This document shows, in pieces, positions 2 through 32,297 of a stretch of 64,000 bases of DNA. Every line of letters starts with the position of its first letter. The first letter of the stretch is position 1. Under the pieces are notes generated by a model. The model was not told the DNA's origin. It saw nothing but the letters and a program-made list of their open reading frames with translations, and ran no database searches. The stretch lies in contig JAEOTR010000006.1 in the NCBI GenBank assembly GCA_016839705.1, positions 1 to 64,000 on the forward strand, in the 5' to 3' direction. Made by a program: the position numbers and the translations under genes. Source of the DNA: Promethearchaeota archaeon. GTDB taxonomy: Archaea > Asgardarchaeota > Lokiarchaeia > Sigyniarchaeales > SOKP01.

Positions 2-3000
2 GTTACAGAAACAAATTTTACAGTATCTGCTACAGAAGACTTTTACATTTATATTGAAGTTTCATTAGAAAATTATGAAACCGAACTTATATCTTTAAAT
101 CCATCAGAATATATATCTGTGCAATGGGGCTCCCAGTTGAAGTTAAGGATAATGTTTAATGTGAGTAAAGCAATAGGGGCTGAACATTTATTAGGACCTA
201 GCTATAGCGATATAATGTCATATAAAATATTAAAAGGAGCAGATCTTATTCAAACTGGGAATTTGGGCATTGAAAAAGATTACAAGGGAACTCATTATTC
301 ATTTATCAATACAGAAAATTTAGAAAGCGATGTAACTTATTTAATATTTATTTCAGCTCAAAAATCGGGATATTCAATTCCTCAAGAATTGCTACTTCAA
401 TTGAGTATTCTGCAAAATGAGTTACTCCTCAATCAATCACAAAATGATGACTCAGTACAATCAGTTTATTGGTCAGACAATATTGACTTTTCGGTAAAAG
501 CTTATGGGGAAATTTCTGAAAGTTTTAGTACTGAAACGAACATTTTTCAAGATATCGATCATAATTTTAGATTTTCGCTCCCAGGTATTAACTCAAACTG
601 GAATTTATCGCAAATAACATTCAATATTTACAATATCTCATGGAATGTTAATGCATCTGATATTAATTTATCCATCCTAGATCCTTATGGTATCAATAGC
701 ATATTTAATACCTCTAATCATGCAGGATGGGATTATAATCTGGGAGTCTGGATAGGAATAACCCTAAATCTTGATAAAGAAAGCCCGACACACGATAATA
801 ACTTTGAATTCATTATTAGTGGAACATTTGATAACACAATAGACGTAATCGCCGATGCGTCCTTCATTAGAAATGATCTTAATGTTCAATACATGAAATA
901 TAACATCTCGGATACCATTTCTCTATTATCTGAATCTGAGGGGTGGGTAATTAAGAATATTACATTTCTAATTCAAAATTGCTACAATACTGCTACTTGG
1001 GAGAAAGTAAACTTATCCACCCTCACGAATTTAAATATCTCTACTGCGGATGGGTTTAAATATTCTCTTCAGTCTGGGGATGAAAATGGTAATGGGATAT
1101 TAATAATAGATGATAAAATTATATATCCCCTAGATAATCGATATCTATTTACTGTTGAAAGCAATCCAAATATTGTATTCGATGTGATTATTAAGGTTGA
1201 ACATATTCAAGCTTTTTATCAAAATAAGCACAGAGAAACTATTAACATATCATACATCCAGGAAAATATTCCTAATGGTGGAACTTATCAATTAAGTTTA
1301 ACAAATGATTGGGATGAAAAATACGCAGTTTTATTAATAAGTGGTATAAATAACAAAACTAAAACCTTTTCTCCTTCAGAGGTTGACATGAGCATTACAA
1401 TTGGAGGTCAAATATATACTGTGCTAAACACTCTTCCTGGACAAGGAATATTTTCGTTAAATGGCTTTAATAAAGATAGCTTATATTTAGCCTCAATTGA
1501 AACAAATCAACCAGTTAATTTCACCCTTTCTTTTAAAATCAGTTACGTAAGAACAGTTAACTACGCAACATTAGGGACAGTAACGTATGTTATGCAAGAA
1601 TCACCCGATATATTTGGAGTTGTAGATTATTATCCCAGTTTGGGAGAATTTTTATTAAGTATAGATACTTCGCTAGTAGATGCAGACTATTACACAATAA
1701 TTTTTGAAGTATTTAAAGAGAATTATAAGATAACTACAAAAGATTTGGATTTCATTATAATGAATCGCTTAACCTTAATAAATGGAGATTCGAAACTATA
1801 TAGAGAACTTGAATTCATTTATATTAAAGACGCAAGAAAGTTTACCTTTTTATATACAGATGCTTTGACAGGAAGTAGAATTACAGATTTAACAACTCAA
1901 TCTTTTATGTGGGAAAAATACGATATTGATGGAAATGTCACCGCTAATGGTAAAGGAACCTTAATTCAAGAAGATGAGGGATCTCTTGTTTTGGATTTTA
2001 ACTCTGAAATCAGAGCTGTTGGAGATTATCTGTTAATTGTTAATTTGGAGAAAGATAATTATGAGTATAAAAATGCTATGATTCTTCTAACAATTAAGAC
2101 AAGGTTTTTATCATATTCTTTAGGGAGTAATTTCAAAAATTATCAGATAAGTGTTGTTAAAGGTCATACAATCCCAATTCAAATAAACTTGACTGATCCT
2201 ACACAAGGAGGAATTCCATTAATTAATGCAACTCTTACGTTGAAAATTGACGGTAATGTTTATGAATTTGAACCACAGACAGGAAACCTAACTGGAATTT
2301 ATATATTTGAACTTTCAACTAGAAATATAAATACATTCTTTAGATCAAAAACTCTCACAGGAATTATCAATATTACCAGAGAGGATTACTTTTCAGAAGA
2401 GTTCTTAATCACAATTACAGTTGAAATGGAAGAGATATTCCCAGGTATGCCGACTTTTTACTTTTTAATAATCTTATTTGCTATTCTCGCAACTGTTGGA
2501 AGCATAGTAGGCTATAGGGTATATAAGCATGCGACAATTCCAACTTTTGTTAAAAATGTAAGACAGATGCAAAAGGAAATTAAAGGTAACAAATCGATCT
2601 CAGAATCCTTGCTATATCAAACAAAAGAAGTTTTTGTTGGTGAGATAGTGAGAGATAAATGGGGGAGTATTGGACTTTCACTGGGAGATATATTAGGAAT
2701 TGAAATTAAAAAAAGCAAAAAGTTACCTAAACTAAAACAGGCCATCTCAGAAGAAGAAGATTATCTAAAACCATTGGGACTAATTTTGATGAAATGGGAT
2801 GAGAGAATTGGAACAGAGCTCATAGCAAAATACCCAGAAGATATTAATGTTTCAGAAAAAACTCTGATGCAAATATACGGAACACATGAATATAGTGGTG
2901 AAAAGGGTTTAGTTTCATTAATTAGGGCTAATCTAAACGTCTTATCGTATTATACTGGTCCGGAATCAGCTTATTATGTTATTTTAATTTTAAATATTGA

Positions 3001-3859
3001 TGATGATCCTGATATATATGAAGGAGCATTGCCAAATGTCGCACAAGTGATTCTTCAAAACCTTGATGATGATTCATATCTACAGATGGTTCCTTCACTT
3101 TTCCAGCGTTTATCGGTTTATCCTTCTCTTACTCATGAACAGAATTTGATCTACTATTATCAAGATGATATCAAACGAATGATGATTAATATCTTAAGAG
3201 ATTACGGAGTAATTACGAAATCAGAGTTGAAAATATGGGTAAGAGAAAGTGAATTAGAAGGTATTATCGATCTAGAAGCGATTTTAGCTGACCTTATTAA
3301 GATTGATTTAATAAAAGTAACTTCAGTAAAAGGAATTCCTTCCGAGCTTATCTTTCTTACAAAAGAGATTTTCATGCTAAGGCTACCTCCTGAAACATTA
3401 TTTAATGATCCCGTGAATCATGGCTTACCAGCACAACTTAAAAAGTTTTATCAAGAAGAAGTTCAGAAATTCTTCAATGAATATCAACCAACCGAAGAGG
3501 ATAATATTGAGCTTCTCTCCATTTTAATTGATCCTGAAGTATATGAAACAATCCGTTTATTGAGAATTGCCATAGTTACGATGAAAGATTTTGAAAAATT
3601 AAAAAATAAAGGAGTCAGTGATATTTATGGTGTACTAAAGAAGCTATGGGATACAAATATGATTAGAGTCTTCAAGGATGAGAATGGAATAGAATATTAT
3701 ACACTCCTTACAGACTTTTATATTGACATATTTTTTCCCAAATATCTTTTAAACGTTATTAAGAGAACACATGAACAAAAATCTAAAACAGATAAAGTAT
3801 TACTAAAATATCTTAGTTTACTTGAAGATATGTATACTATTTCAAAATCAAAAGACTAA
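2..3859 (+). CDS. Giant single-pass surface protein (5'-partial) with Ig-like ectodomain and cytoplasmic uDENN/longin-like + winged-helix tail
   Basis: Frame is open from base 2 (VTETNFTVS...), so the gene starts outside the window. Ectodomain is beta-rich with many N-x-S/T sequons. TM FYFLIILFAILATVGSIVGY (~2450-2520). Cytoplasmic LGLILMKWDERIGTELIAKYP longin-like start, then two wHTH-like segments. Confidence 0.8.
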   Translation, partial: VTETNFTVSATEDFYIYIEVSLENYETELISLNPSEYISVQWGSQLKLRIMFNVSKAIGAEHLLGPSYSDIMSYKILKGADLIQTGNLGIEKDYKGTHYSFINTENLESDVTYLIFISAQKSGYSIPQELLLQLSILQNELLLNQSQNDDSVQSVYWSDNIDFSVKAYGEISESFSTETNIFQDIDHNFRFSLPGINSNWNLSQITFNIYNISWNVNASDINLSILDPYGINSIFNTSNHAGWDYNLGVWIGITLNLDKESPTHDNNFEFIISGTFDNTIDVIADASFIRNDLNVQYMKYNISDTISLLSESEGWVIKNITFLIQNCYNTATWEKVNLSTLTNLNISTADGFKYSLQSGDENGNGILIIDDKIIYPLDNRYLFTVESNPNIVFDVIIKVEHIQAFYQNKHRETINISYIQENIPNGGTYQLSLTNDWDEKYAVLLISGINNKTKTFSPSEVDMSITIGGQIYTVLNTLPGQGIFSLNGFNKDSLYLASIETNQPVNFTLSFKISYVRTVNYATLGTVTYVMQESPDIFGVVDYYPSLGEFLLSIDTSLVDADYYTIIFEVFKENYKITTKDLDFIIMNRLTLINGDSKLYRELEFIYIKDARKFTFLYTDALTGSRITDLTTQSFMWEKYDIDGNVTANGKGTLIQEDEGSLVLDFNSEIRAVGDYLLIVNLEKDNYEYKNAMILLTIKTRFLSYSLGSNFKNYQISVVKGHTIPIQINLTDPTQGGIPLINATLTLKIDGNVYEFEPQTGNLTGIYIFELSTRNINTFFRSKTLTGIINITREDYFSEEFLITITVEMEEIFPGMPTFYFLIILFAILATVGSIVGYRVYKHATIPTFVKNVRQMQKEIKGNKSISESLLYQTKEVFVGEIVRDKWGSIGLSLGDILGIEIKKSKKLPKLKQAISEEEDYLKPLGLILMKWDERIGTELIAKYPEDINVSEKTLMQIYGTHEYSGEKGLVSLIRANLNVLSYYTGPESAYYVILILNIDDDPDIYEGALPNVAQVILQNLDDDSYLQMVPSLFQRLSVYPSLTHEQNLIYYYQDDIKRMMINILRDYGVITKSELKIWVRESELEGIIDLEAILADLIKIDLIKVTSVKGIPSELIFLTKEIFMLRLPPETLFNDPVNHGLPAQLKKFYQEEVQKFFNEYQPTEEDNIELLSILIDPEVYETIRLLRIAIVTMKDFEKLKNKGVSDIYGVLKKLWDTNMIRVFKDENGIEYYTLLTDFYIDIFFPKYLLNVIKRTHEQKSKTDKVLLKYLSLLEDMYTISKSKD

Positions 3860-9557: not shown

Positions 9558-11291
9558 TTATCCCTCCTCTGGTATAAAACCTTCTATTTCTGAAGATGCC
9601 ATTATTTCTTTAACCCTTGTAAAAGCATCTGCAATCCGTTTTTGAACATTTTTTGCAGAATAAATAGTGATATATTTGCCAAGTGGGGTAGCATTGACCA
9701 TTTGCGTCATTTTTCTATGCACATTTTTCAATTCTGGTCCAACTCCAATTAAAACAAAATTGAGAGGAGGCTGAATTGACTTTATGAGAGTTGCAATTTT
9801 TCTTGGGTTGAATTCCTTGCTTAAATTATCTTCACCATCAGTTAATGTTATTACCCATTTCTGACGTTCTTGGGATTCTTCTCCCTGAATCATTGGTGCT
9901 TTGCTCAATATGTCAATAGCATGTGCTATTGCATCATAAAGGGCAGTCTCATACCTTGTATTTTCTAAATATTTAAATAAATCAACAATTTCCGCAATAT
10001 TTCCTCTCTTCTCTGTAAGTTCGAGAACCATATTTATTATAGAGTGAAAACCGACAATTGCAACACGATCTCCGATATTAATGGTTTCGTTAAAGACACC
10101 TAAAGCACCCATTCGTGCAGCTTGCATTTTTCCCCATTCTTTCATACTGCCAGATTGATCAATTACAAACACTACATCCTTTTTACTAACAAGAAGATCA
10201 TTTATTTTTGAAAGTTCAAGCTCTGCTTTATGATGAAGGGTTGTATCCCCTTGATTTTCATATAATTTGATCATTGCTTCAAGATTATTTTTCATTAGAG
10301 GATAATTCTGTAGATTTCCTGCCAATTTCAAAGATTTGTTGAAATGCTCTTCTGCTTCTTCTGGTTTATTTTTTAACATTGAAAGTCTTCCTAATTGAAA
10401 TTCGTCTTCTGCTAATCCTACATTATAATCCCATTTGCTATCAAGTCTAAAAGCTTCATTTAGTTGTTCTTGAGCGAGCTCTAATTCATTTTTTAGAATG
10501 TGAAGAACCCCTATATTTCTTTTTCTAGCGGCAATTCCTTCATCATCATCCATTTCCTTATCCAATTCAAGAGCTTTTTCAAAATCTTTCATAGCTTCGA
10601 CCCACTTTTCTTCGGAAAGGAAGAGAATACCACGATTATTATATCGAGAGCTTAATCCTCCTATATCATCCATTTGCTCACCGATTTCAATTGATTTAGC
10701 ATAACAATCTTTAGCCCTGTTATTATCTCCCCACATTCGATATATATTTCCAAGATTATTCAGGCACATTCCCTGTCCATTAAGATTTTTAGATGTCCGG
10801 AATAGTTCTAAAGCGGCGTTATAATTAGTAAAAGCAAGATTCATGTCACCACGATAATAACTTTTATTTCCCAAACGCATGGTAACCAATAAATTTTGAA
10901 AAGATTGAGCTAGAATACCAATTTCGTTTCCCCTAATCCTACCATCCATCGAAATCTCTTGTGATAAATCACCTTCAGCTATCATTTCTATCGATTGAGT
11001 TAATTCATTAATAGGTACTGTAATTCTACTGGAGATACGAATTACACCCAATGAAATTACAATGATAATAATAATAGCTATAATAATGAACGTTATTATC
11101 AAAGGAACTTTAAATGCTTCAACTGAGCCAAAACCTAAATTAACATATTCATCAATAATCGAAAATAACTGTAATATTAAAGCTATTGTCAAAATTACGA
11201 ATGGAATTAAAATGCAAGCAATCATGGTTAATATAATCCTTCGTCGTAATGACTTTTTCTTCCCAATTTGTTGTACATCCAGATCTTCCAT
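9558..11291 (-). CDS. Membrane-anchored HAMP-TPR-vWA protein
   Basis: 2 TMs, HAMP ([22 protein letters not shown]), TPRs ([24 protein letters not shown]), vWA with intact MIDAS (DQSGS, T, LTDG). Confidence 0.85.
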
Positions 11292-11356: not shown

Positions 11357-12109
11357 TTAAATTCCCTTATCTATCCCTTCATAAATTAAAAATATTGATG
11401 TGAAAATAAAGGCTTTAACAATAGCCAACCCTATTAATCCGAAATCTTCAGCCCCAAATGCTGCATCAATGATACCAAACAAGGAAGCCATAGAAAGTCC
11501 AACACCCATCGAATATCTTTTCCATTTTGCACTTTTGTTATCCATTTTTCGACCACTATACATAATAATAGGACCAAGAAATATCATCATTATAATCAAC
11601 ATTAATGACAACAATGTTAATGCTAAACCTCTGATTCCTGTCTCAGGTAAACCGCCAGGAGATGCTTCCCATTTAGTATAAATTGAAGGATTCGTATAAA
11701 TCAAAATCGCAAAAATTACGCTAATAATCGCCATGATACCAGTTACTGGAATTTTGTAACGACCGTCTTTAAATGTTTCCATCGCAACGTAGGACCAAAT
11801 TGGTATTCCCAGTGCGGGTCCCCATGCATATCCAAGAACTCCCACGTTTGGATCACCATCTGGATACCCTAAAGGGTTAAGTCCTAATATCATCAGTAAA
11901 AAACTTGCAGAGACACCAAACCATGCTTGATAAACTGAAAATAAACCAACTCCTCTTAATATGATCTTCTTTTTAACTTTAGGATTTGGTGCTCTTCGAG
12001 CATGTTTAAAAAAGAGGACAAATGCCAAAATATAACCACTGAGAATAATCTCTAAACCAGTTACCCCATTTATAATATCAATATTAGGAAGGACCATTTT
12101 ATTAGTCAC
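11357..12109 (-). CDS. Seven-transmembrane protein (paralog of 24805-25545)
   Basis: Seven hydrophobic segments in 250 aa. Shares NG, W..S.SFL, NP, K.K, TM6 Asp and TM7 K/R..I.TS...Y.G with the 246-aa protein. Confidence 0.7.
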   Translation of the reverse strand: MTNKMVLPNIDIINGVTGLEIILSGYILAFVLFFKHARRAPNPKVKKKIILRGVGLFSVYQAWFGVSASFLLMILGLNPLGYPDGDPNVGVLGYAWGPALGIPIWSYVAMETFKDGRYKIPVTGIMAIISVIFAILIYTNPSIYTKWEASPGGLPETGIRGLALTLLSLMLIIMMIFLGPIIMYSGRKMDNKSAKWKRYSMGVGLSMASLFGIIDAAFGAEDFGLIGLAIVKAFIFTSIFLIYEGIDKGI

Positions 12110-24804: not shown

Positions 24805-25545
24805 ATGACATTGAACCCCTTGGATGTTTTAAACGGAATATTTAGTTTCATTTTTGTGATGATTTCTTTAGTCGTTGGCTTTTTAATACTGATAAGATAT
24901 TTCAGATATAAAGAGAAAATTTATTTTTTAGTTGGAGCTACCTGGATATTAATATCTGAACCATGGTGGCCTTCTAGTTTATCTTTTCTAGTATCATTAA
25001 GTAATGGAGTAGGAATAACGCCAATGATATACTTTTTAATAGGGAATGTGTTGGTCCCACTGGCGATTGCCTTATGGTTACTAGCATTTTCAGATTTTTT
25101 ATACACTGAAAAACGTAAATTGATACTCCTCCTATTTGCAATTATAGGAATAATCTTCGAAGTGTTATTCTTCACTCTATTATTTATAAATCCAGATCTA
25201 ATTGGAATTTTAAACCCACCGGTTGATGTAAGTTATAATTTCTTCATAATGATTTTCCTATTAATCTTTATCTTAATTGTTGTCATTAGTGGTTTATTGT
25301 TCGCTCGTTTATCTTTGAAGTCTGATGATCCAGAAGTTAAACTAAAAGGAAAATTATTAGTAATTGCGTATATTGCCTTTTTCGTAGGAGCATTATTAGA
25401 TTCATCTATACCATTAAATGCGCTTGGAGTAATATTTGTGAGGTTAATATTAATAACGAGTGCCATCTTTTGGTATGGTGGGTTCTTACTTCCTCATTGG
25501 ATGAAAAAGCTCTTTCTAAAACAGAAAAAGGTAATACAAGGATAA
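24805..25545 (+). CDS. Seven-transmembrane protein (paralog of 11357-12109)
   Basis: Seven hydrophobic helices, basic loops after TM1, TM3 and TM5, basic C-terminal tail. Confidence 0.75.
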   Translation: MTLNPLDVLNGIFSFIFVMISLVVGFLILIRYFRYKEKIYFLVGATWILISEPWWPSSLSFLVSLSNGVGITPMIYFLIGNVLVPLAIALWLLAFSDFLYTEKRKLILLLFAIIGIIFEVLFFTLLFINPDLIGILNPPVDVSYNFFIMIFLLIFILIVVISGLLFARLSLKSDDPEVKLKGKLLVIAYIAFFVGALLDSSIPLNALGVIFVRLILITSAIFWYGGFLLPHWMKKLFLKQKKVIQG

Positions 25546-25598
25546 TATCCAGATTCATATTTTTTTCACACTAGATCTTCTTAATAAATCATTTAAGA

Positions 25599-26138
25599 TT
25601 GTGGTCAATTATATTAAGCTCTGAAATTAGCAAAATAGTAAAAGTAACTTTTATTGGGGCTCCCGCTGTGGGAAAAACCACCATGTTAAAACTTCTAATA
25701 AAAGACCACATTGATCGGTTTTATATACCAACACATGGACTTGACCTTAGAACAGTAAAATTCGATGATTATTATCTCCGTATATGGGATCTCGCAGGTC
25801 AGAGTGGATATCTTCGAACATATTCAAAGGATTACTTGCTAGGCTCAGATGTTATTTTTATTGTATCAGACTCAACACCTCGTAATGTATTAAATACTAG
25901 AGAGTTGATAAATTATGCGTGTCATTTTGTCGGTAAAGAATGTCCAATTATTTGTATAGCGAATAAACAAGATCTAGTAAAATCTGATGGTCGAATGGAT
26001 GCAAAAAGGGTTGAGGATCTTTTACGTGTTAAGACATATGGATTAACTGCCATTAATAAAGCAGAGAGAAAAACATTATTAAATATAATTAAAAAAGAAT
26101 TAGAAAAAATATCAGTTAGGAGGGGGTTAAAAGAATAA
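25599..26138 (+). CDS. Ras-superfamily (Arf/Rab-like) small GTPase
   Basis: G1 GAPAVGKT, G2 PTHG, G3 WDLAGQ, G4 NKQD, G5 TAI. Confidence 0.9.
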   Translation: MWSIILSSEISKIVKVTFIGAPAVGKTTMLKLLIKDHIDRFYIPTHGLDLRTVKFDDYYLRIWDLAGQSGYLRTYSKDYLLGSDVIFIVSDSTPRNVLNTRELINYACHFVGKECPIICIANKQDLVKSDGRMDAKRVEDLLRVKTYGLTAINKAERKTLLNIIKKELEKISVRRGLKE

Positions 26139-26692
26139 TGAAATTTAGCGAAAATGAACTATTTGGCGCGGCATTAATTGGATTCGACATGATAGATGGA
26201 CCTTTCCTCAAATGGAAGAAGGAATTTAAAGATCCCACGAATCTAGTTAATTTAGACGATTTTGCTATGAATTTTTATCTCGCATTTAGAGGTGGAAATG
26301 CTGGCAAAAAACCAAGAGCAATTCTCTATGATAAATTTTATATTGTCGCATTTCCGAAAGATCTGGAGCTATGTTGCCTTTTTATGAAACCTCAGGGAAT
26401 TGAAAACAATATTAAACAACTTAATAAAATAGCTAATAAAATTACTACCGAAATGGAAATAGGAGAAGAAGCATTTCTACCATCAGAAGATTCTGATGAG
26501 GAAACTGTTGAAGAAATCAAAAGAATCATACCAAATTTGTTGAGTGGGACAAAAATGTCAACTCCAGAATTGAGGCGATACTTTAAATTAAGTAACTCTC
26601 AAATATGGAAGGTAATGTCTGAATTGGAGAATTCGAAAAAAGTGAAACGTGCCGAAAAAAAAGGAAGATCACAACTGTGGACAGCACTATAA
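26138..26692 (+). CDS. uDENN/longin-like domain fused to C-terminal winged HTH
   Basis: AALIGFDMIDGP (hhhxFDxxxGP), acidic linker, MSTPELRRYFKLSNSQIWKVMSELE..KV...KKGRSQLW wHTH. TAATG overlap with the GTPase. Confidence 0.7.
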   Translation: MKFSENELFGAALIGFDMIDGPFLKWKKEFKDPTNLVNLDDFAMNFYLAFRGGNAGKKPRAILYDKFYIVAFPKDLELCCLFMKPQGIENNIKQLNKIANKITTEMEIGEEAFLPSEDSDEETVEEIKRIIPNLLSGTKMSTPELRRYFKLSNSQIWKVMSELENSKKVKRAEKKGRSQLWTAL

Positions 26693-28970: not shown

Positions 28971-31900
28971 TTAGTCTAATTCTACTGGTATAATAATCCC
29001 TTTTCTTTTTAGGGAGATAATGGTGCTTATTATTTCATCTCTCGATGCTTTTCTTCCCGCTAAACCAAAGTTTAAAAGACTAGATATAAAGAAGAATTTT
29101 CTCTCTTTCTGAATTTGTTCAGCGACTTCTGCAAGAGCTTTTTCTAAACCCTTTAGTTTTATTACTCCATAATGCTTTCCTAATTGAAGTGGATAGACAA
29201 AGGTAACATTGAAATATTTTTCAATTAAATCATCAGTAATTCTAAAGGGGGTAATATCACCTTTGAAATTCGTAAGTTCAGTTTCAAATCTTCTCTCAAA
29301 ATGTTCTGTAAATGCTCCTTGGCTTTCTTTTAATTTTTGTGAGGGACTGCCATCTAGTATCAAAGCTACTCGAACATAATCACCATCTGTTATAATAATT
29401 TTAAAGTCATAATAATCCATTTCAAAACCCTTCCCCTTTGTTAAAGCAGTACTATCCTTTTTTATTTCTGTCCTGAATTGCGAAATCGCTTGTAGAAACC
29501 CTGATATTAAATCAGAATCTAAGCCTTCTAAAGAGATTTGTTTATCATAGAGTGAGACTCCGCCTTCTTTATCCAATATCATAATATATGCTATCTTTAA
29601 CAAATCATCTAAGATCATCGCTTCTCCTGCCCAAGTTCTCCTTTGTTTCGAATGTTTAAAGTGCCTTAATGAAACAAATGTAATAGCCGCGAGTAATCCC
29701 CCTAATATATAAGGTAAATACCTCATAAATTGTTCCATAAAAAGTGTAAACTCACTTACAATTTTGATATATCCTGAAATAACTTCTGCACTTGTGTACA
29801 ATCCTTCTTCTGCAAACCTTGCTCGAATAGAATACCTAGTACCCGTACTCGCAAAATTTAGGGAGGTAGTTGCTATCCCTTGATCATTTGATATAGCCGT
29901 AGCTTCATATATTGTAATATTATTTGCATTTAAAATCTCAAAGATTACCTCAATATTTTCTAATGGTTTGCCTCCTGGTTCAAGTACTCTTATTGAAAAA
30001 AACTGAGTTCCTGTCATATATTGTGATGCCGGATTTTCAATGAACTCTATTAAAGGTATTATTTTAAAACGTTCATAGGTTCCGTTTACATCAAATCTAA
30101 TTGCATGCCATAAAGAAGTTACTTCGAATTCAAAAAATCCTTGGTTGATTTCTGCATTATCAATATCCGCTTCCCAAATCCCTTTGCCAATTCCATTGTC
30201 AGTCACATCTACCCCAAAGTTTTTTAAGCCAATATCAGAAGGAGTTAAAGTGTTGCTATTTATTCCTAAACCCAGAGACGAGGAAATATCTGAAGTAATA
30301 GCATTTTGGATGTAGAAATTAACACTAAATTCATTGATAGAAACATTAAATCCCACATCATCCGAGTTGTTTGTAGTATAGACTAATATAAAAAATGCTT
30401 CATTATCTTGTGTTTCATTTAAAATATTTAAAAAGATCCATGTAAAACCCGCATCAAATTGAAGAACATCAGTAGTTTCATTCATATGAGCGAATTTTCT
30501 AACATCACTCATTAAAATCCACTCACCCTCATTAGTTTCATCATCGAGGATGTCAAACGATGCATTTCCTTTGTAAAGTGCTAAAGCTGCCAAGTCAAGA
30601 TTATCTGGTTTACTAACATTAGAAGTTATTCTTATATCCATTAAAGGGACTATTGGATTTGGATATGAAGCAATCCAATCATAATAATCAATATCCCAGA
30701 AGGAACTATCAAGTTCGTTTAAAACGTTGTAAGTAAGGAAGAATGATATCGTATCATTATTGGCCTGTGCTTCGTAATAATCATTATCAATAAAATTCAA
30801 CGATTCAATGTCTTGATCCCCAAATGGAGCGCTTGTTCCATTGAAAACATTTACACTATTTGTAAAATACAAGTCTTGAACTAATGGATCATGAGGTTGT
30901 ATCGAATCAAGGTTTTCTAATTCTCCCACTTCAACCCTAAATTGATTAACAGAAACATTGAAAGGAGTACCTTTTCCAATATATTCAAGTTTAAATCTAA
31001 GAGTGTTATTAGCACTGGGTTTAAGGGGATTATTATTCATAGCATAAAGAAGCAGAAGCTTTTCTGACGGATTTCTTATTGAGAAATAAAGTGTTGATTC
31101 AGTTGCCTGAACTATATCATAATCAAGAGGAACCCATTTATTCGCTGTCATTCCTGCTTTGTAATTATATATCGAAATGTTGGCAGATTGAATATGTTGA
31201 ATATCAGAAACATTAACTGTTAAGTAGAAATCAAAACTAAAAATAAATTTATAGTGCTCATATATCCACTCAAGACTCTTTGACCGGAAAATTAACTCCC
31301 AAAAGGTATAAGGTGAATTTTTTAATTCTTGGAGTTCAAAAGTAACATCAATAGTAACATTGTTAGCATCACCAGCTATATATCTATCATCATCATCTTG
31401 AGTAAATGAATTAATATCTCCACTATAATAAGTCCCATTTGCGACCTGTGATGTCATTACATGGTTAGTTGTATAATCATCAAAAGAAAAATCAGGGGAT
31501 ATAGCAAAAGTTGTACCTTCTCCTAAACCATCATTTTCCTCATCATCGGGATTAAAATAAAGGAATTTAGGACCTCCTCCTGTTGGTGAATCATCCTGAG
31601 GTATTTTTATTCTGAATGCAAACCAATATTTTTCAGTTCCTTGTTCTAATGTCATATTTGTTTTTGTAATATCTAAAAATACCGGACCTGAATCTGAATC
31701 TTCAAAATCAAAAACTTCCCAGTGGGCAGCAAAAACTAATGGGTGAGCTTTTTCTAGAATTCCCAAAGTAATTACCGTATTTGGGGTTCCCATTATATCG
31801 TTGGAACAATTTACAATCGCAACTTCCCATGAATTCTCATCTGTAAATGAGCTAGGATTATTAATGTCCTGAATTAGAACACTAACATTGTTTACATATT

Positions 31901-32297
31901 GACTCATTTCTATCGAGAATTTTTGATAGATATAAGTTGAACCTGAACGAGAACTAGAAATAAATTCTGAGAAACCATCTTCGATGTATCTTGTATAGTT
32001 TATTGCAGTAATATTCTCAAAATCCATTTTAGCATGCGAAATATTATAATTTGGGATATAGATACTAGGTTGGATGTTTAAATTGGATTGTTCTCGATTG
32101 ACGTAGCAATAATTGTTAATCCATGTAAAATTATCGAAAATTTTTCCTGTACGATTAATTGCTTGAGGATATAGGTTATTTAGATTTTGACTGGAGTCTG
32201 ATGTGTTATTGCTTGACGAGTTTGAATTATAGATTGGTATTAAAACAAATGTAATTAAGAAAAGGGGTAAAAAAATTTTGTTTTTAATTGTTTTCAT
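28971..32297 (-). CDS. Large single-pass surface protein with cytoplasmic longin + wHTH-like tail
   Basis: Signal peptide, ~830-aa sequon-rich ectodomain, TM YLPYILGGLLAAITFVSL, then IMILDKEGGVSLY...LISGFLQAISQF...F.GD..PF longin pattern. Confidence 0.8.
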   Translation of the reverse strand: MKTIKNKIFLPLFLITFVLIPIYNSNSSSNNTSDSSQNLNNLYPQAINRTGKIFDNFTWINNYCYVNREQSNLNIQPSIYIPNYNISHAKMDFENITAINYTRYIEDGFSEFISSSRSGSTYIYQKFSIEMSQYVNNVSVLIQDINNPSSFTDENSWEVAIVNCSNDIMGTPNTVITLGILEKAHPLVFAAHWEVFDFEDSDSGPVFLDITKTNMTLEQGTEKYWFAFRIKIPQDDSPTGGGPKFLYFNPDDEENDGLGEGTTFAISPDFSFDDYTTNHVMTSQVANGTYYSGDINSFTQDDDDRYIAGDANNVTIDVTFELQELKNSPYTFWELIFRSKSLEWIYEHYKFIFSFDFYLTVNVSDIQHIQSANISIYNYKAGMTANKWVPLDYDIVQATESTLYFSIRNPSEKLLLLYAMNNNPLKPSANNTLRFKLEYIGKGTPFNVSVNQFRVEVGELENLDSIQPHDPLVQDLYFTNSVNVFNGTSAPFGDQDIESLNFIDNDYYEAQANNDTISFFLTYNVLNELDSSFWDIDYYDWIASYPNPIVPLMDIRITSNVSKPDNLDLAALALYKGNASFDILDDETNEGEWILMSDVRKFAHMNETTDVLQFDAGFTWIFLNILNETQDNEAFFILVYTTNNSDDVGFNVSINEFSVNFYIQNAITSDISSSLGLGINSNTLTPSDIGLKNFGVDVTDNGIGKGIWEADIDNAEINQGFFEFEVTSLWHAIRFDVNGTYERFKIIPLIEFIENPASQYMTGTQFFSIRVLEPGGKPLENIEVIFEILNANNITIYEATAISNDQGIATTSLNFASTGTRYSIRARFAEEGLYTSAEVISGYIKIVSEFTLFMEQFMRYLPYILGGLLAAITFVSLRHFKHSKQRRTWAGEAMILDDLLKIAYIMILDKEGGVSLYDKQISLEGLDSDLISGFLQAISQFRTEIKKDSTALTKGKGFEMDYYDFKIIITDGDYVRVALILDGSPSQKLKESQGAFTEHFERRFETELTNFKGDITPFRITDDLIEKYFNVTFVYPLQLGKHYGVIKLKGLEKALAEVAEQIQKERKFFFISSLLNFGLAGRKASRDEIISTIISLKRKGIIIPVELD

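Follow-up and report, generated by a model that had tools for sequence, protein, structure and literature searches.

Asgard archaeal genomes hold dozens of eukaryote-like small GTPases together with longin and roadblock proteins, and the partnerships between them are unassigned. In MK-D1, GTPase genes as a rule do not share operons with roadblock or longin genes, so that partners are hard to match (PMC10933270), and for the Asgard Arf GTPases the native regulators have still to be found (PMC11914678). Among the systems described, Liu et al. (10.1101/2020.10.19.343400) report an Asgard operon of a LAMTOR1-like protein, a Rab-like GTPase and a DENN protein, as well as NPRL2-like longin families (asCOGs), with NPRL2-like longins fused to prokaryotic signalling domains. 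A Gly-Pro (GP) motif has been reported as specific to the longins of the GTPase-activating proteins (GAPs) FLCN, NPRL2, SMCR8 and C9orf72 and to some Asgard longins; Asgard 'FLCN/SMCR8-type' longins have it, and it is absent from DENND, TRAPP and adaptin longins (PMC12290439). Here we describe an exception to the lack of assigned partnerships: two adjoining genes, one for an Arf-like small GTPase and one for a partner protein that joins a GP-motif longin-type domain to a winged helix-turn-helix (wHTH). They lie in the window, by which we mean the whole 64,000-nucleotide stretch analysed (contig JAEOTR010000006.1 of a Promethearchaeota archaeon). The G+C content of the window is about 31%, and the host assembly, of Lokiarchaeia type, comprises 3.36 Mb in 97 contigs.

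A first-pass annotation, made from the letters of the window, had grouped these two genes with an upstream gene for a seven-transmembrane (7TM) protein and had read the trio as a "proto-GPCR" module leading from a receptor through a G protein to DNA. Three plus-strand open reading frames (ORFs) do lie at the places it gave, separated by the 53-bp gap (25546–25598) and joined by the TAATG overlap that it described. Our analysis indicates that the pair is real and ready-matched, and that the "proto-GPCR" reading is not supported. The explanation that we put first, with slightly more belief than doubt, is a two-gene operon with its own promoter, in which the Arf-like GTPase and a translationally coupled protein of GP-motif longin domain, acidic linker and basic wHTH would together form a GTPase-controlled one-component regulator.

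The GTPase and its longin-type partner are inherited together across Asgard classes

The partner gene is single-copy and was found in 38 of 41 relatives; of 301 genomes drawn from the whole phylum, 90 have it. Hidden Markov model (HMM) searches of the loci recovered the order GTPase-then-partner in every sampled genus of family f1 (g12–g19). At all 11 loci from three other families of the order, the GTPase gene lies directly upstream of the partner gene on the same strand, with gaps of 0–20 bp. The two genes also adjoin in two other orders (families f5 and f6) and, with a full-length partner, in two other classes (f14 and f20), and in class f13 a longin-only form of the partner still adjoins the GTPase. 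The GTPase lies about 3 kb from the partner homologue in f19, and in f12, f22 and f23 a longin-only homologue is present with no GTPase within 3.5 kb. These distributions show that GTPase and partner have been inherited together across several Asgard classes; a GTPase-then-longin order kept across classes is far from chance. Because longin-only forms still adjoin an orthologous GTPase, the longin domain is the constant element: the core consists of GTPase plus longin, to which Lokiarchaeia and certain further classes have added the wHTH.

In the window the partner gene is predicted to be translationally coupled to the GTPase gene, whose TAA stop codon (26136–26138) shares a base with the partner ATG (26138–26140) and whose 3′ end contains a strong Shine-Dalgarno-like sequence (Table 1). 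The GTPase–longin coupling proposed by the first-pass annotation is thereby borne out, as a conserved, translationally coupled unit across families, orders and classes. A full-text literature search on Asgard, longin, winged helix and GTPase found no description of the pair, nor is it described in the accessible part of Liu et al. (10.1101/2020.10.19.343400). As a conserved unit of an Arf-like GTPase and a GP-motif longin, the pair should be amenable to binding, structural, and GAP or guanine nucleotide exchange factor (GEF) work.

The GTPase is an intact, canonical switch with Arf-type motifs, because its G motifs are invariant in 12 orthologues: GxPAxGK[TS]T, YxPTxGF (T45), WDxxGQ (Q68), ANKQD and A151. 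The window copy has GAPAVGKTT, T45, WDLAGQ (WDFGGQ in orthologues; Q68), NKQD and TA(I), so that G1–G5 and the catalytic Gln are all present; the first-pass annotation had described an intact GTPase that keeps this Gln. Among 16 Pfam families Arf scored best (61.7 bits, cut-off 22.3), ahead of Roc (56.1) and Ras (50.7); SRPRB reached 17.8 bits only, and TIGR00231 scored 48.7 bits against a cut-off of 42.5. The closest solved relatives are Arl3 (5e-13), Arl2 and Arf1, with Rab1 near behind. T45 and D64 are 19 residues apart, the same spacing as in Arf1. The orthologue alignment revealed no conserved N-terminal Arf amphipathic helix, the element coupled to the interswitch toggle; ahead of the first strand the N-terminus is short and variable, at 0–30 residues, and has 14 residues in the window protein. 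Features of G-alpha were not seen in this protein of 179 aa, which lacks the helical insert.

The nearest GTPase paralogue in the genome (36% identity) is part of a 345-aa ORF at contig C81:113834–114286. It is flanked on both sides by members of a longin-like family of 358-aa proteins, to which we return below, making C81 112422–120012 another GTPase/longin-like neighbourhood.

Beside the pair, families f2 and f3 have a conserved, divergently transcribed gene for a protein of ~260 aa with a GPNCIDPxxCHGDCC motif and no Pfam match (loci L026 6577–7359, L027, L029, L030, L033 and L034), followed by a 120-aa Mrr_cat-like protein. This Cys-rich protein is the usual upstream neighbour of the pair in f2; in the host genome it is encoded on another contig (C20:13351–14091).

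Table 1 Coordinates in the window of the genes, protein domains and predicted signals at the locus
Feature	Position	Strand	Basis
7TM membrane protein, 246 aa	24805–25545	+	ORF; seven hydrophobic segments; no Pfam or NCBIfam match
21-bp box GATAATATCCAGATTCATATT, imperfect palindrome, candidate regulator-binding site; overlaps the 7TM stop codon	25541–25561	+	Constant spacing to the downstream GTPase
T7 run after the 7TM stop, archaeal terminator-like oligo-T	25560–25566	+	T-rich stretch kept in orthologous loci; putative terminator function
TATA-like element CTTAATAAATC	25580–25590	+	Kept upstream of the orthologous genes
Arf-like small GTPase, 179 aa, TTG start at 25599	25599–26138	+	ORF; Pfam Arf; motif comparison
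Shine-Dalgarno-like sequence GGAGGGGG	26119–26126	+	Within the GTPase 3′ end; 11 nt ahead of the partner ATG
Longin-wHTH partner protein, 184 aa	26138–26692	+	ORF
Predicted longin-type domain, partner residues 1–112	26138–26473	+	AlphaFold 2 model; weak Foldseek matches
Acidic, variable, disordered linker, residues 113–119	26474–26494	+	pLDDT <50 for 112–119; length and sequence vary in the alignment
Basic wHTH, residues 120–184, and stop codon	26495–26692	+	VIA; HTH matches of family members

Domain architecture of the partner protein

The partner belongs to a narrow family of 526 proteins at 90% clustering, every one annotated as hypothetical, and only 31 representatives of it occur among 1.84 billion. 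Its closest named relative is Lokiarchaeum GC14_75 (79% identity), and the protein itself has no Pfam or NCBIfam match. Its structure was predicted with AlphaFold 2 (AF2). A run with a 13-sequence alignment gave a poor N-terminal domain (predicted local distance difference test, pLDDT, 30–60); we therefore used a model built with a 52-sequence alignment (m47d71d514b62; mean pLDDT 81.9). In that model residues 8–112 follow the longin order β1-β2-α1-β3-β4-β5-α2 (E8–17, E21–29, H39–51, E61–63, E68–74, E77–83 and H89–112; block pLDDT 66–90).

The FDMIDGP sequence singled out by the first-pass annotation corresponds to residues 16–22 and would place the GP motif (G21-P22) in the β1-β2 loop. This dipeptide is invariant in 13 order-level orthologues and kept in at least 90% of the 52-sequence family alignment. 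Foldseek searches gave weak matches to AP-3 sigma/mu (9c58_M, 2.3e-3), to the DENND1A longin with Rab35 (6ekk_B, 4e-3) and to Ragulator, delta-COP, TRAPP and MK-D1 roadblock2, all with E values of 2e-3 to 9e-3. The VIA structure lists for the partner were taken up by wHTH matches, and the longin domain was barely probed by that aligner. Taken together, the model and comparisons support a third protein made of a longin-type domain with a GP motif and a transcription-factor-type wHTH. Of the "uDENN/longin-like" N-terminus proposed at first pass, the longin-type topology stands in the AF2 model, whereas uDENN was imprecise, the GP motif being reported absent from DENND proteins (PMC12290439).

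The C-terminal domain is a wHTH of transcription-factor type, and that part of the first-pass description proved correct. AF2 predicts an α-β-α-α-β-β fold with pLDDT 80–92. The domain has a net charge near +8, and its R146, R171, K174 and R177 are conserved. VIA matched it to ZBP1/PKZ Zalpha, ArsR-type PH1932, NolR, HlyU and MarR with Z scores of 9–10.3 and root-mean-square deviations (rmsd) of 1.5–2.3 Å over 60–62 residues, the top matches reaching Z 10.2–10.3 and rmsd 1.5–1.6 Å over 61 of 65 residues. Homologues of the partner match the families HTH_11 (7e-8), HTH_5 (1e-7), HTH_DeoR (1e-7; 29.9 bits, cut-off 21), GntR and MarR; the window protein itself matched no curated HTH family above cut-off. 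The wHTH probably binds nucleic acid, for which its net charge and the four conserved basic residues speak.

A different use of the same domains has to be considered. The longin-wHTH protein could be a GAP, a GEF or a scaffold of the GTPase, with the winged helix as a protein–protein module like that of NPRL2/NPRL3, and could act on membranes, the cytoskeleton or the division machinery rather than on DNA. The invariance of a GP motif reported as specific to the GAP longins FLCN, NPRL2, SMCR8 and C9orf72 (PMC12290439) favours this possibility, as does the retention of the GTPase neighbour by longin-only forms. VIA also returned protein-binding winged helices (the cullin WHB, ESCRT-II and Rpa2), and the nearest named Atlas cluster contains 19% NPR2 members (score 0.78), a weak lead. 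By contrast, no conserved arginine finger was found: partner residues 1–112 contain no invariant Arg. The residue at the β4-β5 turn is Lys74 in the window protein, R, H or K in orthologues and mainly acidic in distant homologues (E/D/K in P0127–P0129 and P0139); R51 is replaced by K, Q, N or M, and R60 is variable. Because the partner lacks this finger, a GAP mechanism of the FLCN/NPRL2 type is not supported, and the roles left to the protein would be those of an effector, a GEF or an MglB-like GAP. Moreover, the C-terminal domain is strongly basic, proteins that bind nucleic acid head its list of structural matches, and HTH families of the DNA-binding kind are matched by homologues at 1e-7. 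We regard a purely GTPase-directed partner as the strongest of the alternatives, though a rather unlikely one.

The architecture is not uniform among distant family members: P0138 and P0142 keep the GP-longin domain with a different C-terminal domain, and P0141 has the wHTH part with a transmembrane (TM) segment and zinc-ribbon-like motifs. Elsewhere in the window, an 1108-aa surface-type protein (28971–32297, minus strand) has a signal peptide, a large ectodomain with Ig-like/MG4 matches and one TM segment, and its cytoplasmic tail has a roadblock/longin-like look with a wHTH-like segment at the end. Its domain logic is that of the longin-wHTH partner, anchored in the membrane.

Promoter sequences and the seven-transmembrane neighbour

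We aligned the regions upstream of the GTPase gene from 72 loci. They share a conserved block made up of GATAWTATCCAGATTCATATT (window 25541–25561), the T-rich run, the TATA-like element and the ATG of the relatives. Whether or not a genus of family f1 has the 7TM gene at this place, the box keeps a fixed spacing to the GTPase, and the block as a whole is retained with unchanged spacing where the 7TM gene is missing. We conclude from this that the GTPase–partner pair has its own predicted promoter. The TATA-like element precedes the position of the relatives' ATG (25611) by about 26 nt, a spacing that would fit a leaderless transcript. All sampled relatives begin the GTPase with ATG TTR AGT TCT GAA; in the window this ATG reads ATA (25611–25613), and the sole in-frame start is the TTG at 25599, which lies four codons further upstream. 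On a leaderless transcript, to which the TATA spacing points, the window copy may be poorly translated; alternatively, the ATA is an assembly error.

The full box is unique in the genome, its own site scoring 30.3 bits and the next best 19.4. Occurrence only at its own promoter is typical of autoregulated one-component regulators, by analogy with which the box may be read. An exact 14-mer occurs 17 times in 41 family genomes, compared with 3 times for a control, mostly outside promoters.

A half-box matrix for the left 14 positions of the box, built from GTPase promoters only, was scored on the −130 to −20 regions of 2412 ORFs with 150 aa or more. Of the three ftsZ promoters in the genome, one scored 20.9, higher than any of the 2412, and the others reached 11.6 (within the top 0.5%) and 6.6 (within the top 3.9%), so that the half-box is top-ranked in two of the three. 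Those of 17 genus relatives scored mostly 9–12.7, compared with a 99th percentile of 9.7 in the host genome. Finding the half-box at ftsZ is a hint of some link with cell division. A search with PF04472 did not find SepF. A degenerate 13-mer written after viewing the ftsZ promoters (38 observed, 35 expected) was circular and was discarded. In the genus, ftsZ promoters contain conserved TATTAYY-type units in tandem, about 11 nt apart (GTATTATCTTCATATTACTTTCATATATTATTCTGATATCGTTCTCGTATTATAAA), with a TATA box at the end (C66:2980–3090, C87 and C76; L118–L134).

In the mechanism that we propose for the GTPase-controlled regulator, the longin domain would dock on the GTPase at its switch face, and would do so according to the bound nucleotide, as longin/roadblock platforms do. 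The partner would act as an effector, or as a regulator without an arginine finger, and the docking would gate nucleic-acid binding by the wHTH, with the 21-bp box in the pair's own promoter as the candidate operator. The fused wHTH and the promoter box thus give a concrete output hypothesis, that of gene regulation, possibly of ftsZ.

Several points weigh against this mechanism. Winged helices can serve protein binding, as in NPRL2/3, ESCRT-II and cullins, and the wHTH is dispensable for the core function, as the longin-only homologues show. The longin assignment draws on a predicted topology together with Foldseek matches in the weak range given above, and HMMs for longin, NPR2 and Folliculin did not match the partner; in searches of the whole genome with PF06218 (NPR2) and PF11704 (Folliculin), the partner gene was not among the matches. 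The full 21-bp box is not enriched genome-wide, with 27 matches compared with 19–28 in Markov simulations, and actin promoters had no box match. What binds the box could be the partner or another factor.

In the latter case, the box might belong to an unlinked cell-cycle regulator and the GTPase–partner operon would merely belong, like ftsZ, to a division regulon, the wHTH binding RNA, other DNA or protein. Sharing of the half-box with ftsZ promoters, which carry tandem TATTAYY-type units and not the full 21-bp box, is what such a regulon would have in its favour. The confinement of the full box to the pair's own promoter, as in autoregulated regulators, speaks against it, and we consider this assignment very unlikely.

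The 7TM protein presents a separate question. Its seven segments, with basic loops and tail on one side, predict an N-out/C-in orientation from hydropathy and charge, and the third cytoplasmic loop and the tail are basic and conserved. Judged by coordinates, an orthologue lies upstream of the pair in 23 of the 23 pair-bearing genomes of genus g1, and genus g15 has two tandem copies there. These features, and the adjacency of the closest 7TM paralogue to another GP-motif longin-like protein in the genus, are compatible with a receptor that activates the GTPase and, through the longin domain, the wHTH. The search for families above noise found neither a GPCR family nor any other Pfam or NCBIfam family; similarity to 7TMR-DISM (E 0.12 in 2 of 7 members) and to HisKA_7TM (0.87) stayed at noise level.

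Against such a pathway stands the distribution of the gene. The 7TM gene does not adjoin the pair in seven other genera of family f1 (g12, g13, g14, g16, g17, g18 and g19), in families f2–f6, which cover three other families of the order and two other orders, or in other classes. Its family is confined to Promethearchaeota and has no Pfam domain; the host genus has 2–7 copies per genome, with weak or no matches elsewhere, and the host genome itself has four paralogues. Between the 7TM gene and the GTPase gene lie the box, the T-run and the TATA-like element, present even where the 7TM gene is absent, and the GTPase lacks the G-alpha insert. The first-pass annotation had itself named the absence of 7TM synteny elsewhere as a ground for giving up its reading, and across Asgards that absence is largely what we see. 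The 7TM gene is best described as a recent, lineage-specific neighbour in a predicted transcription unit of its own, brought upstream of the pair in two genera only. We hold a receptor-to-DNA pathway to be highly improbable, and an attractive yet unsupported "proto-GPCR" story is thereby removed.

Throughout the genus, the gene of the closest 7TM paralogue (46% identity) comes immediately after that of a 358-aa protein (contig C1 67070–69011; L003 1498–3442, L040), a pairing that is limited to the genus. The 358-aa protein has a W-x-x-x-x-G-P N-terminal hairpin motif and probable winged helices. Its family is large, with 3–8 copies per genome, and also forms the C-terminal part of giant ORFs of 1200–2700 aa, including window 2–3859. 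We considered the 7TM paralogue, an Arf-like GTPase and the 358-aa protein on contig C1 as a second trio that might lend independent support, and rejected it: that GTPase is not a constant neighbour even among genomes of the genus, and outside the genus the 358-aa orthologues have neither neighbour. Paralogy of the partner and 358-aa families is likewise not claimed, hhalign having given only a weak winged-helix-to-winged-helix match (probability 26%) with the N-terminal domains unaligned. In the window, a distant 7TM family member (11357–12109, minus strand) has 24% identity, with a BLASTP value of 3e-5 for the N-terminal half; its alignment extends across all seven helices, and it heads a cluster with a HAMP-TPR-vWA protein (9558–11291).

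A genus-specific functional tie of the 7TM family to longin-winged-helix proteins may exist. In its fullest form, our preferred reading of a GTPase-controlled regulator would become a GTP-gated transcription switch acting at its own box and at the ftsZ half-boxes, such that a small-GTPase cycle of eukaryotic type controls archaeal division genes, with the 7TM family feeding membrane inputs to GP-motif longin-winged-helix proteins in Lokiarchaeum-like genera. This extension we think unlikely.

Comparison with known systems

The partner resembles the GP-motif longin GAP subunits (NPRL2/NPRL3 of GATOR1, FLCN-FNIP and C9orf72-SMCR8) in having a predicted longin with GP at the β1-β2 loop, and those subunits act on Arf or Rag GTPases; NPRL2/3 likewise join an N-terminal longin to C-terminal winged-helix-type domains. 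It differs from them in matching neither the NPR2 nor the Folliculin HMM, in lacking a conserved arginine finger, in its small size (184 aa), in its lone wHTH, which is of the bacterial/archaeal transcription-factor type, and in the operon that it shares with its own GTPase. The hypothesised output is also unlike the membrane-traffic roles of eukaryotic relatives.

MglA/MglB and other prokaryotic GTPase–roadblock/LC7 operons likewise place a Ras-superfamily GTPase beside a partner of the roadblock/longin superfold without an arginine finger. Compared with MglB, however, the partner has the longin strand order, starts without an N-terminal helix and combines a GP motif with a fused wHTH, and compared with MglA the GTPase is Arf-like and keeps the catalytic Gln. 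The LAMTOR-Rab-DENN operon is, like our pair, a conserved Asgard neighbourhood of a small GTPase and roadblock/longin-type proteins, but the pair has an Arf-like GTPase, only two genes and a longin fused to a wHTH.

The SRX domain of SR-alpha, a longin fold, is an effector of the Arf-related GTPase SR-beta and binds it in the GTP-loaded form. SR-beta falls with the Arf family (10.1101/2024.02.28.582541). Unlike that system, the pair has no SRP-receptor context, its GTPase falls short on SRPRB as noted above, and SRX is not among the fold matches. As for the 7TM protein, it shares seven predicted helices, the N-out/C-in orientation and a conserved third cytoplasmic loop and tail with 7TMR-DISM, HisKA_7TM and the GPCRs of GPCR/G-alpha systems, but its similarity to them is at noise level, and it has neither a fused output domain nor a conserved GTPase linkage.

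Finally, one-component regulators such as CRP/Vfr and CodY share with the partner an N-terminal alpha/beta sensor, a long helix and a C-terminal wHTH, and were returned as whole-chain Foldseek matches. These matches are weak (E 7e-4 to 6e-3, TM about 0.25), and the sensor folds differ. In place of the small molecule sensed by such regulators, the presumed 'ligand' of the partner would be the GTPase encoded by the gene just upstream.

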